Shown here piece after piece: positions 1,514-3,450 of a stretch of DNA of 42,480 bases. Within the stretch, counting starts at the first letter, position 1. Each line of letters opens with the position of its first letter. The stretch comes from Escherichia phage EC22.5-2. The notes beneath the pieces were generated by a model, which worked only from the letters and a program-made list of their open reading frames with translations, made no database searches and had not been told where the DNA came from. The position numbers and the translations under genes were made by a program. The DNA is taken from the sequence record OR845139, one strand, 5' to 3'.

Positions 1514-1729
1514 ATGAAATATCGTGAGAAGTTAGCCCAACAATTTGCTGGGTTGGAGAAGCTATCCGGCGCTGAGTTGAGGAAGCGTCGGGATGCGCTG
1601 AATCGTGCTGGGTATATGCGGATGAAGCAATCTGCTACGTTCAGCACGAATGTGCGCGGTAAGACCAAAACAAAGGGCAGTAGCAAGGCTCCGCAAGGCT
1701 GGTACACTGCTGGGCAGTTCGGACGCTAA
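1514..1729 (+). CDS. Early protein, unknown function (72 aa, basic)
   Basis: ATG 1514 preceded by gagagg RBS; ORF-track start 1433 lacks RBS; first gene after promoter cluster. Confidence 0.55.
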   Translation: MKYREKLAQQFAGLEKLSGAELRKRRDALNRAGYMRMKQSATFSTNVRGKTKTKGSSKAPQGWYTAGQFGR

Positions 1730-1735
1730 TTACAG

Positions 1736-1766
1736 CCTATAGCATCCTATGGGGTGCTATGTGAAG
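1736..1766 (+). promoter_or_regulatory. Conserved intergenic hairpin element, copy 1 (cctatagcatcctatggggtgctatgtgaag)
   Basis: 7-bp stem 1741..1747 / 1752..1758 with tatg loop; near-identical element at 2521..2550 with compensatory A-U to G-C change. Confidence 0.45.
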
Positions 1767-1800
1767 TAATTACCTAAACAACCAATCAAAGAGGTGCATC

Positions 1801-2385
1801 ATGACTAAAGCAACTAATTCAACTGCCAAAGTATTCAAGTTAACCGCTGCGGGTAGCATCCGTAAAGCGCTGGGCGATGTAGTGGAAGCAAAGCGCAATA
1901 TCACTATTAGTGCACTGTTTCACGGCCTGATTAGTAGTAACGTTTCTTGGGCGACGGATATGCAGCGCAGTGATGCCGCTGATTTCGATATGGTGCTGCG
2001 TACTTTGTTACCTATCAAGTTCAACAAGGAGTCGGGCAAGTACGAATTCCACGCTAAAAAGTGTTATGCATCGGCTGAGAAGCTGGGTATTGAGCTGGAT
2101 AGTGTGCGTCTGGATTATAAACAAGCTGACAAGCAAGGCCGTGAAGTTATTGTAAACAACTTCTATAGCGCCTGTATGGCCCTGTACGCTGCTGAAGCAG
2201 AGCAAGTGAAGAATGATGCCCTTGATGCCGATGCAGTGCGCTTGCAAGCTCTGGGGCGCGTTAAAAACGCCATCAAGAAGGCTAAAGAAACTGGGGTGAG
2301 CGACTCTGATTTGGTGAGTATGCTTATTAGTCAGGGCGTGGATGTACGCGCTGTACTGGATGCAACTTTGAAGGTAGCGGCATGA
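1801..2385 (+). CDS. Early protein, unknown function (194 aa)
   Basis: ATG with aagaggtg RBS; no recognisable motif. Confidence 0.7.
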   Translation: MTKATNSTAKVFKLTAAGSIRKALGDVVEAKRNITISALFHGLISSNVSWATDMQRSDAADFDMVLRTLLPIKFNKESGKYEFHAKKCYASAEKLGIELDSVRLDYKQADKQGREVIVNNFYSACMALYAAEAEQVKNDALDADAVRLQALGRVKNAIKKAKETGVSDSDLVSMLISQGVDVRAVLDATLKVAA

Positions 2386-2513
2386 TTTATAAGATTCAAG
2401 CTATCAAGTGGTGGGCATTGATTCCGGCAGCTAATGACTCTGACGCCTTTGATGTGCCAACCCGGGGCCGCCATAACAGGTGGCACTATGAGGGATTGGG
2501 AGAATACGTATAA
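2382..2513 (+). CDS. Small ORF (43 aa) translationally coupled to the upstream gene, not in ORF track
   Basis: ATGA start/stop overlap at 2382..2385; hand translation MIYKIQAIKWWALIPAANDSDAFDVPTRGRHNRWHYEGLGEYV; ends just before hairpin element 2. Confidence 0.3.
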   Translation: MIYKIQAIKWWALIPAANDSDAFDVPTRGRHNRWHYEGLGEYV

Positions 2514-2520
2514 TGGTAAG

Positions 2521-2550
2521 CCTATAGCGTCCTGCGGGGCGCTATGTGAA
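2521..2550 (+). promoter_or_regulatory. Conserved intergenic hairpin element, copy 2 (cctatagcgtcctgcggggcgctatgtgaa)
   Basis: 7-bp stem 2526..2532 / 2537..2543, tgcg loop; 27/30 identity to copy 1. Confidence 0.45.
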
Positions 2551-2573
2551 TACCGTTAACAACGAGGTTTCAA

Positions 2574-2795
2574 ATGAAAGCAAAGCTAATCTATCCTGGG
2601 CATGTACTCTGGCCCGTATGGTGCAATCAAGTGCATGCAGAGTATAACTATACTGTGATGATATTCTCTGACCGCGACACCAATCAGGAATCCCCTTTAG
2701 ATCTCGTAGACACCCATACCGAAGCAGCGGCGCGTACTTTGCTGGATGCCGTGAATCTCGGTATTATTACCGACTGGAGACAACTTTATGACTAG
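2574..2795 (+). CDS. Early protein, unknown function (73 aa)
   Basis: ATG with gagg RBS upstream. Confidence 0.6.
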   Translation: MKAKLIYPGHVLWPVWCNQVHAEYNYTVMIFSDRDTNQESPLDLVDTHTEAAARTLLDAVNLGIITDWRQLYD

Positions 2796-3051
2796 TGTTG
2801 TCAATATCATTGTTACCAGCGCCATGCTGGTGCTAGGCAACGATGTGAATAACCCAGTGCCCTATTGCACTGTACACGTTCAACAAGGGCAGCATCAAGA
2901 GCAGCAACCACGCCCTGAGTACGACCTCTTTGAGAATCCAGAGGGCGGTTGCAAGGCGTTAGGTATTCGCCTACTTAAGGCGGTGCGAGAGCAAGAACCC
3001 AACATCGCTGTAACTCTGACCGTGGACGGTGTAAGCAACAACGGTATCTGA
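2788..3051 (+). CDS. Early protein, unknown function (87 aa)
   Basis: ATG overlaps upstream stop by 8 nt; ggaga RBS. Confidence 0.55.
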   Translation: MTSVVNIIVTSAMLVLGNDVNNPVPYCTVHVQQGQHQEQQPRPEYDLFENPEGGCKALGIRLLKAVREQEPNIAVTLTVDGVSNNGI

Positions 3052-3064
3052 GGTAAGTATTGAG

Positions 3065-3250
3065 GTGAGTATGTACGGAAAGAATCCAGAGGTGCTGCTT
3101 ATGTGTAAGCAGCAACAAACTATTGACGGGCTGGCGCGGGAGTACAGCGCAAAAGCAGCGCTGCGCCAGCACTATGAGAAACAAGCGAAGCGGCTGGGTA
3201 TGACCCTGCGCGGTTACTGTCACCGTTTTAATGTGCGAGGTGTAGTATGA
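3065..3250 (+). CDS. Early protein, unknown function (61 aa; alternative ATG start at 3071)
   Basis: GTG 3065 / ATG 3071 behind gaggtaag / gaggtgag RBS-like sequence. Confidence 0.5.
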   Translation: MSMYGKNPEVLLMCKQQQTIDGLAREYSAKAALRQHYEKQAKRLGMTLRGYCHRFNVRGVV

Positions 3251-3450
3251 ATGAACTAGTTGAGTATGACTTGTACAAGCGCCCGAACGGGCTACTGTAC
3301 CGGGTGCCGCTGTATGGTACGCTGAACGAGCACGCTGAACACTATAGCAAATCTCTGCAGCGGTGGTTGCAGTCAAGCCACACAGTTGGCGGTATAGTAT
3401 CCAGCGACAATAGCACACTCGTGGCTCGCAATGTAGTATTCAAGGATTAA
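3247..3450 (+). CDS. Early protein, unknown function (67 aa)
   Basis: ATGA overlap with upstream stop. Confidence 0.55.
   Translation: MNELVEYDLYKRPNGLLYRVPLYGTLNEHAEHYSKSLQRWLQSSHTVGGIVSSDNSTLVARNVVFKD

Follow-up and report, generated by a model that had tools for sequence, protein, structure and literature searches.

The early gene block of the Drulisvirus phage EC22.5-2, a set of conserved and exchangeable small proteins

Early regions of T7-like and phiKMV-like phages

The class I region of phage T7 is comprised of genes 0.3 (Ocr), 0.4, 0.5, 0.6 and 0.7 and is furnished with the RNase III sites R0.3-R1.3. The first-expressed position of such genomes is where Ocr and many other counter-defence genes sit. 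A genome layout shared with the phage described here is found in the phiKMV/LUZ19-type Pseudomonas phages (e.g. Qst) and in the PhiM1-like Pectobacterium phages, and their first genes encode small products, particular to each lineage, that are presumed to redirect proteins of the host (PMC6115819).

The window analysed here, the whole 42,480-nucleotide stretch of DNA recorded for Escherichia phage EC22.5-2 (OR845139), is an entire Drulisvirus genome (KP34-like, phiKMV-type Autographiviridae). Its first small genes, named A-G here, have gene-by-gene orthologues in the same order in KP34 (gp1-gp8; 36-94% identity) and in fHe-Kpn01 (gp02-gp10; 52-93% identity), while counterparts of KP34 gp4, fHe-Kpn01 gp05 and fHe-Kpn01 gp08 (DUF987) are absent from the window. 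The likeness to T7 lies in a set of small genes at the left end of the genome, the first to enter the cell, driven by tandem host promoters and bearing long internal-loop hairpins between the cistrons. The phage differs from T7 in that neither Ocr nor gp0.7 has a homologue in it by sequence or fold, and in an RNA polymerase gene that lies outside the early region, at 18.2 kb (18246-20714), the phiKMV/KP34-type layout. The analogy with Ocr and gp0.7 drawn in the first-pass annotation is one of position only. Characterised early proteins of Pseudomonas phages likewise display no detectable homology to the block.

Organization of the gene block

The region 1514-3450 contains seven plus-strand open reading frames, where six to seven had been noted, and their products span exactly the 43-194 residues reported earlier. 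Gene H lies just beyond this region, yet belongs to the same coupled run of small genes, of which it is the last. The genes are as follows.

Gene A: 1514-1729, plus strand; 71 residues, pI 11.1; KP34 gp1 orthologue; phrog_6352; core.
Gene B: 1801-2385, plus strand; 194 residues, pI 9.0; KP34 gp2 orthologue; phrog_5277; near-core.
Gene C: 2382-2513, plus strand; 43 residues, pI 6.7; KP34 gp3 orthologue; phrog_10968; variable, accessory.
Gene D: 2574-2795, plus strand; 73 residues, pI 4.8; KP34 gp5 orthologue; phrog_7657; variable.
Gene E: 2788-3051, plus strand; 87 residues, pI 4.9; KP34 gp6 orthologue; phrog_7036; variable.
Gene F: 3071-3250, plus strand (alternative start, GTG 3065); 59 residues, pI 9.9; KP34 gp7 orthologue; DUF7267/phrog_5136; core.
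Gene G: 3247-3450, plus strand; 67 residues, pI 6.8; KP34 gp8 orthologue; phrog_7916.
Gene H: 3453-3797, plus strand; 114 residues, pI 9.8; KP34 gp9 orthologue; phrog_6167; core.

Genes A-G are real genes rather than chance open reading frames, because each matches one PHROG family over the whole profile (E 3.8e-24 to 3.2e-103), each is preceded at 5-10 nt by a Shine-Dalgarno ribosome-binding site of the GAGG/GGAG type, neighbouring genes are coupled (ATGA overlaps at the B/C and F/G junctions and an 8-nt overlap of D and E), and pairwise dN/dS against five relatives is low (0.02-0.54), indicating purifying selection. Gene H is under similar constraint, with dN/dS of 0.10-0.26 compared to 0.8-1.6 in the overlapping, non-coding frame at 3550-3786; the latter values also show the long form of the downstream ORF I (start 3550) not to be coding. 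Two minus-strand open reading frames (1390-1707 and 2975-3418) were dismissed because the purifying selection belongs to the plus-strand genes that they overlap. From the host promoters to the gp9, gp10 and M28-like peptidase genes, gene order is kept in 13 Drulisvirus relatives, and the small-protein block ends before I, since the counterparts of protein I and of the peptidase are virion-associated in fHe-Kpn01. The seven tightly packed early genes are confirmed as genuine and conserved. As a find the block is ordinary, having been annotated already, with its products listed as "hypothetical" across hundreds of genomes.

Early promoters and two-tier RNA hairpins

Two host-type promoters precede the block, in agreement with the earlier placing of these genes behind host promoters.

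Promoter 1: 1055-1083, plus strand; host sigma-70 type, TTGACA-N17-TAGATT; the top promoter-like site in 1-7000, with 10 of 12 positions matched.
Promoter 2: 1212-1240, plus strand; host type, TTGACA-N17-TAACTT; matching the promoter at 1262-1290 of KP-Rio/2015.

The sequence of the first is annotated as a host promoter in both KP34 and KP-Rio/2015. Eriksson et al. 2015 include both among the promoters of KP34-like phages, the second as the second host promoter of NTUH-K2044-K1-1, F19 and SU503 (PMC4411677). The literature searched contained no transcriptome, transcript-end or timing data for Drulisvirus; the conserved promoter sequences support A-G as the first genes that would be transcribed from host-type promoters.

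Three long hairpins are present, one each before genes A, B and D.

Hairpin 1: 1450-1498, plus strand; long and two-tier, directly 5' of the gene A ribosome-binding site.
Hairpin 2: 1727-1772, plus strand; in the gap between A and B; its 31-nt core is invariant; candidate RNase III site, given in the literature as a "putative phage promoter".
Hairpin 3: 2511-2558, plus strand; in the gap between C and D, with the same 31-nt core as hairpin 2.

The predicted minimum free energies are -21.7 kcal/mol (z = -8.6), -18.9 kcal/mol (z = -3.4) and -26 kcal/mol (z = -5.3), respectively. Each is built of an upper stem of 10 pairs and a lower stem of 7-8 pairs, separated by an invariant internal loop. The lower stem of hairpin 3 is unlike that of hairpin 2 in sequence but still complementary. 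Among relatives, 96.5% of the cells of hairpin 1 are paired versus 23-53% in slid controls, with compensatory changes in 2 pairs, and for hairpin 3, over 15 copies, 95.4% of cells are paired versus 24-44% in slid controls, with changes on both sides in 9 of the 19 pairs and a covariation score that was reached by none of 500 shuffles. An Rfam search of positions 1-4000, hairpins included, returned no credible family.

The hairpin core has earlier been described as a putative phage promoter or as a nick site (PMC4411677), and two of the three hairpins correspond to such published "phage promoters". The structural features of T7-type RNase III sites, namely a stem of at least 18 pairs, a conserved internal loop and a location between early cistrons, are all found here, and the three hairpins are most likely candidate processing sites of this type rather than phage promoters. 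Rereading the motif as a covarying RNA hairpin explains the loss of a B-C cassette and changes how Drulisvirus early expression is to be modelled.

The explanation that is favoured here, and that is probably correct in outline, is that the block constitutes the class I (early) gene set of a Drulisvirus phage, composed of a core and of exchangeable small proteins of a binding type. Upon entry of the left end of the genome into the cell, host RNA polymerase would initiate from the two sigma-70 promoters (1055 and 1212) and produce a single polycistronic RNA that carries the three related two-tier hairpins. These would act as RNase III-type sites of processing or stabilisation and divide the message into the units A, B-C and D-E-F-G-H, within each of which the genes are likely to be translationally coupled. 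The small, non-enzymatic products most likely bind host macromolecules or nucleic acid: the very basic A, the basic DUF7267 protein F, H and the near-core B would have conserved roles early in infection, for example in taking over the host or in early regulation, whereas C, D, E and G would be dispensable, exchangeable cassette genes.

The core genes A, F and H and the near-core gene B

Gene A was found in 14 of the 14 relatives examined, including a copy in Phimunavirus Koot that is 51% identical; its homologues are confined to phage contigs of about 43 kb and its dN/dS is only 0.02-0.05. The product of gene F matches DUF7267 (Pfam PF23929; E 7.9e-24, 84 bits where the cut-off is 27). Every relative has the gene, and 305 phage records contain it, among them those of Pectobacterium, Dickeya and Enterobacter phages. 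Homologues of A, B, F and H occur in Koot at 31-51% identity. B has been lost from phages IME308 and RCIP0072, and B-type proteins are conserved in several Autographiviridae lineages. The B product is mostly helical, and ten of its remote homologues scanned with Pfam have no fused known domain. Its best PDB profile match is to ankyrin proteins, but it involves only a single motif of the LLxxGADVNA type (residues 164-186), which also retrieves one ankyrin-repeat protein in a large search; this is read as a resemblance of motif and not as homology.

It is possible, though on balance doubtful, that A, F, H and perhaps B are devoted to the phage's own programme and not to an attack on the host, for instance as nucleic-acid-binding regulators of the early-to-middle switch or as factors of genome internalisation or replication start. 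The basic character of A, F and H (pI 9.8-11.1), their presence in every relative, Phimunavirus included, the housekeeping-like constraint on A, the conservation of B-type proteins across several lineages and the non-toxicity of the homologues of core members (discussed below) are each consistent with such roles. Against them stand the failure of Pfam and PDB profile searches to detect any DNA- or RNA-binding domain, and the viability of IME308 and RCIP0072 without B.

The exchangeable genes C, D and E

Within the class I set favoured above, gene content varies: B-E are missing in some relatives, and in others the same gaps contain HNH endonucleases, a DUF987 protein or other ORFans. The DUF987 family is known from enterobacterial prophage islands, where it lies beside anti-restriction genes. 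Gene C, identified by its match to phrog_10968 (E 2.5e-29), is missing from 6 of 14 relatives and is 63-100% identical to the copies in the others, with a dN/dS of about 0.1. The product of gene D represents the acidic extreme of the block, with 10 Asp and Glu compared to 5 Lys and Arg in its 73 residues, and profile searches found no relative of it in the PDB. Gene E is present in about 244 phage records. A note in the fHe-Kpn01 record (GenBank MN380459) assigns its counterpart to the DinI superfamily, but this is not supported: the EC22.5-2 protein has no match to PF06183, DinI is absent from among its PDB profile matches, and alignment with an approximate sequence of E. coli DinI gave an hhalign probability of 0.8% over 11 columns.

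Gene G, a relative of the toxic protein Gp10

Gene G is the sole member of the block whose relative has a tested phenotype. Gp10 of fHe-Kpn01 is toxic to E. coli when induced with arabinose from pBAD33, while the fHe-Kpn01 homologues of A-F, tested alongside it, were not toxic and gave relative CFU values of 0.42-0.90 (PMC7291057). The latter result, for the host and the crude assay used, argues against strong host shutoff by A-F. G and Gp10, both of the phrog_7916 type, align over 64 of 67 residues at 52% identity (E 8.7e-23) and share the conserved motifs YD.YKRPNGLLYRV and STLVARNVVFKD. The predicted structure of G, a confident model, is a small β-barrel with five strands and about 65 residues, for which structural comparison ranked Sm/LSm and SH3 domains as the nearest neighbours. 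Its closest known counterparts may be small early phage proteins with an Sm/LSm- or SH3-like β-barrel, such as T4 GoF (PMC12152347).

G is also the fastest-evolving gene of the block. Compared to its counterpart in AV102, otherwise the closest relative, it is only 56% identical with a dS of 1.5, whereas the neighbouring genes are 95-100% identical to those of AV102. The G allele is instead of the KPV811 type (96%), a sequence pattern that indicates a swap of alleles between close relatives. Variation is concentrated in a middle segment, at residues of about 23-47, that is predicted to be the likely surface of contact with a target. It is also in this segment that G departs most from Gp10, and with identity of only 52% overall the toxicity of Gp10 may not hold for G. 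As a predicted β-barrel whose relative halts the growth of E. coli, G nonetheless appears to be the best candidate in the block for a host-shutoff or growth-inhibiting factor. Neither further work on Gp10 nor any use of the block's family names turned up in the literature searched.

Searches for known functions and anti-defence families

Searches of Pfam, NCBIfam, PADLOC and PDB sequences assigned no function to A-G; DUF7267 in F was the only match, and the PHROG families matched are all of "unknown function". The lack of recognisable enzymatic motifs stated earlier is borne out by Pfam, NCBIfam and PADLOC, save for this one domain. PDB sequence-profile searches for B, D, E, F and G returned nothing below E 0.02. 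PADLOC, which covers defence rather than anti-defence proteins, found nothing above threshold in the block, and its sub-threshold matches of A to Cas2 (E 0.04) and of H to pPIWI_RE_Y (E 0.0026) are noise.

The profile search for anti-defence families that had been proposed matched none in Pfam-A or in the PHROGs annotations. A homologue of Ocr was rejected, as Pfam contained no Ocr match (at E <= 1, only unrelated weak ones), and an Ocr-like DNA mimic likewise, the pI values of 4.8-11.1 including no strongly acidic protein. A kinase of the gp0.7 type was also rejected, since the largest open reading frame, at 194 residues, is too small and neither Pfam nor NCBIfam gave a kinase match. Among Klebsiella phages of the KlebPhaCol collection, AntiDefenseFinder calls were reported only in Jiaodavirus, Slopekvirus and Webervirus, and none in the three Drulisvirus phages (PMC12629751).

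Anti-defence activity of the block proteins is nevertheless possible, and one or more of them, most plausibly C, D, E or G, may be inhibitors of anti-phage defence that belong to undescribed families, a proposal offered only tentatively and judged rather unlikely. Its appeal is that the block is made up of the first genes expressed, that its content turns over to the point of an allelic replacement of G, that a DUF987 protein takes up the same gaps in relatives, and that the non-toxicity of the A-F homologues is what would be expected of anti-defence proteins. It is weakened by the lack of any family match in Pfam or PHROGs, of a protein as acidic as DNA mimics, of a call in the three KlebPhaCol Drulisvirus phages (PMC12629751) and of a reported defence-specific phenotype, and the conservation of A, B, F and H exceeds that of typical arms-race cargo. 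Very improbable is the notion that the variable small open reading frames are selfish or neutral passengers (morons) with no role in infection, since, for all their dispensability in some relatives and their adjoining of homing HNH endonucleases there, purifying selection acts on every one of them, their translation is coupled to that of core genes, and 240-300 phage genomes retain them.

With the block read as a class I set of core and exchangeable proteins, the first-pass interpretation as a whole is partly supported. It holds in that the products are small, confined to this lineage of phages and devoid of any enzymatic function that could be assigned. The description of the block as a hotspot suits its varying gene content among relatives, but does not extend to the core genes A, F and H with their very strong constraint. 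The idea of host takeover finds a foothold in the toxicity of Gp10, the relative of G, but not in the A-F homologues, which were not toxic in the E. coli screen.

Implications for Drulisvirus biology

Phages of the genus Drulisvirus are among the most used therapy candidates against Klebsiella, yet their whole early set is still annotated as hypothetical. The outcome here is a short ranked list that sets the core genes A, F and H, with the near-core B, against the exchangeable genes C, D, E and G, the last belonging to the only family in the block with a tested phenotype. The block is a well-characterised case of the usual early ORFan block, and the general picture of phage biology is unchanged by it. 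There is some prospect, though short of an even chance, that at least one exchangeable protein is the first of a new family of inhibitors that target the host or counter its defences; G is the strongest candidate, and C, D and E come after it. If so, the conserved barrel of G would serve as a frame for the display of a hypervariable segment (residues of about 23-47) that follows variation in a host target or defence protein, and the alleles of G would be exchanged between phages by recombination.

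Gene content and context of the early block

The sequence is a complete genome of Drulisvirus (KP34-like; Autographiviridae, Slopekvirinae) with all of its large open reading frames on the plus strand. Bases 1-77 are repeated at 42404-42480, as expected of a terminal repeat, which is only partly represented in this assembly. The left end (1-1000) is non-coding and rich in repeats, with TATCCCTAG occurring four times and TAGTGGGCC three times, both confined to this region, along with 23 CTAG sites in 1 kb, a strongly negative AT skew (-0.18) and a G run at about 67-79. Bases 1400-3900 find matches in 240-299 phage records, headed by Escherichia phage AV102 (92% identity), then Klebsiella phage KPV811 and Escherichia phage Minorna.

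Features of the early region and the polymerase genes, with orthologues in the reference phages KP34 and fHe-Kpn01 and pairwise dN/dS against five relatives
1055-1083, sigma-70-like promoter TTGACA-N17-TAGATT, the strongest such site in the first 7 kb
1212-1240, second sigma-70-like promoter, TTGACA-N17-TAACTT
1450-1498, hairpin before A, a third, related copy (z = -8.6)
1514-1729, +, gene A, 71 aa; KP34 gp1, fHe-Kpn01 gp02; dN/dS 0.02-0.05
1727-1772, hairpin copy 1, before B in the A-B gap, with the invariant 31-nt core
1801-2385, +, gene B, 194 aa; gp2, gp03; 0.06-0.13
2382-2513, +, gene C, 43 aa; gp3, gp04; about 0.1
2511-2558, hairpin copy 2, before D in the C-D gap, with the invariant 31-nt core
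2574-2795, +, gene D, 73 aa; gp5, gp06; 0.1-0.5
2788-3051, +, gene E, 87 aa; gp6, gp07; 0.09-0.15
3071-3250, +, gene F, 59 aa; gp7, gp09; 0.06-0.24
3247-3450, +, gene G, 67 aa; gp8, gp10; 0.2-0.54
3453-3797, +, gene H, 114 aa; KP34 gp9; directly after G, the eighth gene of the same packed block
9970-12375, DNA polymerase gene
18246-20714, single-subunit RNA polymerase gene, downstream of the DNA polymerase gene

The first-pass annotation accurately described six to seven small reading frames of 43-194 aa at 1514-3450; there are seven, A-G. These are real protein-coding genes, given that every gene of the block has a Shine-Dalgarno site, full-length matches tie each protein to a single PHROG family (E 4e-24 to 3e-103) and dN/dS is low. 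ATGA overlaps join B to C and F to G, and D and E overlap by eight bases. The KP34 gp4 gene has no counterpart in the window. Orthologues are labelled hypothetical proteins in every record inspected.

The large reading frame downstream of H is annotated in KP34 (gp10), Minorna, SFN6B and KPV811 in a long form, here 667 aa from ATG 3550, which overlaps H in another frame. The extension (3550-3786) has a dN/dS of 0.8-1.6, against 0.10-0.26 for H, and is therefore non-coding, placing the start at ATG 3787 (588 aa). Bases 3787-6587 of this 'early' region encode the 588-aa protein, which is acidic (pI 4.5) and rich in cysteine (20 Cys; phrog_6980), and an M28-like peptidase. Their fHe-Kpn01 homologues, gp12 and gp13, and also gp14, were detected in virions by mass spectrometry, and the two proteins may be ejected together with the DNA.

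The block does comprise the first genes behind host promoters, as had been proposed: the two sigma-70-like sites are those given for KP34-like phages (Eriksson et al. 2015; PMC4411677), and both are annotated in the KP34 and KP-Rio/2015 records. A literature search found no Drulisvirus transcriptome, so the early timing of expression is inferred. The likeness to T7 is one of position only. Neither an Ocr homologue nor a gp0.7-type kinase was found in the block, and the location of the RNA polymerase gene makes the layout one of the phiKMV/KP34 type, whereas in T7 the polymerase gene is early.

Two-tier RNA hairpins

The A-B and C-D gaps each hold one invariant 31-nt core, GCCTATAGC(R)TCCT-NN-GGGG(Y)GCTATGTGAA. 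This motif was described as a 'putative phage-specific promoter' that occurs just twice and cannot explain late transcription (Eriksson et al. 2015; PMC4411677), and it is annotated as a promoter in the KP-Rio/2015 record. As RNA, the core forms a 10-pair upper stem closed by a UNCG-type loop (UAUG in copy 1), beneath which lie a conserved internal loop and a lower stem of 7-8 pairs, whose sequence differs wholly between copies and phages while its complementarity is kept. Across 15 distinct copies, 95.4% of cells are paired, compared to 24-44% with a slid partner; both sides have changed in 9 of the 19 pairs, and the covariation score is equalled by none of 500 shuffles. The hairpin at 1450-1498 has 96.5% of cells paired and two compensated pairs among six sequences. 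Covariation of the lower stem is unexpected of a promoter, and the hairpins are therefore read as RNA processing or stabilizing sites. The RNase III sites of T7 resemble such covarying two-stem hairpins and likewise lie between early genes; by this likeness, the hairpins are candidate T7-type sites at which RNase III would process the early mRNA, splitting it into A, B-C and D-H.

RCIP0072, which has neither B nor C, bears a chimeric hairpin at 3429-3483 that combines the 5' flank of copy 1 with the 3' flank of copy 2, and this points to deletion of the B-C cassette through recombination between the two cores. Chimeric hairpins, with a copy 1 or non-matching 5' flank and a copy 2 3' flank, are seen in RCIP0072 (L010 in our numbering of relatives) and in KPV811 (L007, 2845-2899).

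Core and exchangeable genes

Across 14 relatives, presence and conservation are mixed, and the block thus combines a conserved core with an exchangeable set and is no uniform hot spot. Genes A, F and H occur in all 14, with identities of 51%, 42% and 31% in the Phimunavirus Koot, and F is found in 305 phage records, including phages of Pectobacterium, Dickeya and Enterobacter. B is highly conserved, at 92-97% identity within the genus and 51% in Koot, but IME308 and RCIP0072 lack it and RCIP0014 has a truncated form. Each of C, D and E is lacking in some relatives, and about 244 records contain E. In relatives, the same gaps of the block are filled by HNH endonucleases, a DUF987 protein (E 1.5e-10) or other ORFans, which shows turnover of cargo at fixed insertion points. 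The DUF987 (YeeT-like) protein or HNH homing endonucleases, lacking in the window, are located at fHe-Kpn01 gp08 (L015, 3303-3542) and in relatives L002 (3224-3463), L013 (2962-3411) and L004 (3458-3946). Roughly half of the block has the character of conserved core and not of arms-race cargo.

The most divergent gene is G (36-96% identity). Its allele has been replaced by recombination, since G is just 56% identical to that of AV102 (dS 1.5) amid flanking genes that are 95-100% identical (dS 0.04-0.6). Conserved ends, YD.YKRPNGLLYRV and STLVARNVVFKD, flank a variable middle with a pooled pN/pS of 0.65.

Predicted functions and host toxicity

The proteins were said to lack recognizable enzymatic motifs, and searches of Pfam, NCBIfam and PADLOC agree, returning only DUF7267 (Pfam, for F) above noise. 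Profile searches of Pfam and PHROGs gave no match to a known anti-defence family, and the matched PHROG families are all of unknown function. PDB sequence profile searches with B, D, E, F and G gave no credible match. A 'DinI superfamily' note on an E homologue (GenBank MN380459) finds no support in an hhalign comparison with a DinI sequence (probability 0.8%). By pI, A (11.1), F (9.9) and H (9.8) are strongly basic and B (9.0) mildly so, and the block holds no strongly acidic, DNA-mimic-like protein.

Structure prediction covered B and G. The model of B (pLDDT 86) is mainly helical, with a small β-hairpin and a 53-residue helix. Its relatives among predicted viral structures are uncharacterized proteins of Aeromonas phage PS, Pectobacterium phage MA2, Vibrio phage VpV262, Pantoea phage LIMElight and Proteus phage PM16. 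When 1.84 billion representatives were searched exhaustively by profile, only 34 clusters matched, and no informative fused domain was found in the ten scanned with Pfam. The C-terminal helix pair of B contains a single ankyrin-repeat-like motif, DLVSMLISQGVDVRAVL (residues 164-186; 2290-2360), which retrieves designed ankyrin proteins in PDB searches and one ankyrin protein of 1270 aa in the large library, probably by convergence on a helix-turn motif.

All of g02-g11 of the Drulisvirus fHe-Kpn01 have been cloned, and their toxicity to E. coli has been screened (Spruit et al. 2020; PMC7291057). Relative transformant counts for Gp2-Gp9 (0.66, 0.65, 0.90, 0.75, 0.42, 0.79, 0.56 and 0.60) all exceeded the 0.4 cut-off; Gp10 fell below it, and its toxicity was confirmed from pBAD33 with arabinose. 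HHpred gave no match for any screened protein (PMC7291057). Along its entire length, G shares 52% identity with Gp10 (E 9e-23), and a literature search found no mechanistic follow-up on this toxicity. In the AntiDefenseFinder survey of KlebPhaCol (PMC12629751), anti-defence genes were reported only in Jiaodavirus, Slopekvirus and Webervirus, and none in its three Drulisvirus phages.

The literature default is that small, lineage-specific early proteins probably act on the host (PMC6115819), and this general idea is reasonable for the block. One member, G, has a host-toxic homologue. Most homologues are non-toxic, no known anti-defence family is matched in Pfam or PHROGs, and about half of the block is conserved core; a putative anti-defence activity is possible, with C, D, E and G as its most plausible candidates. 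As a feature the block is already known, since hundreds of genomes carry its genes under the label hypothetical, every A-G protein has a homologue of 95% identity or more in AV102 or KPV811, and toxicity in the G family is published. What adds some value is the candidate ranking, the predicted fold of G and the swapping of its alleles, and the new reading of the 'phage promoter' motif.
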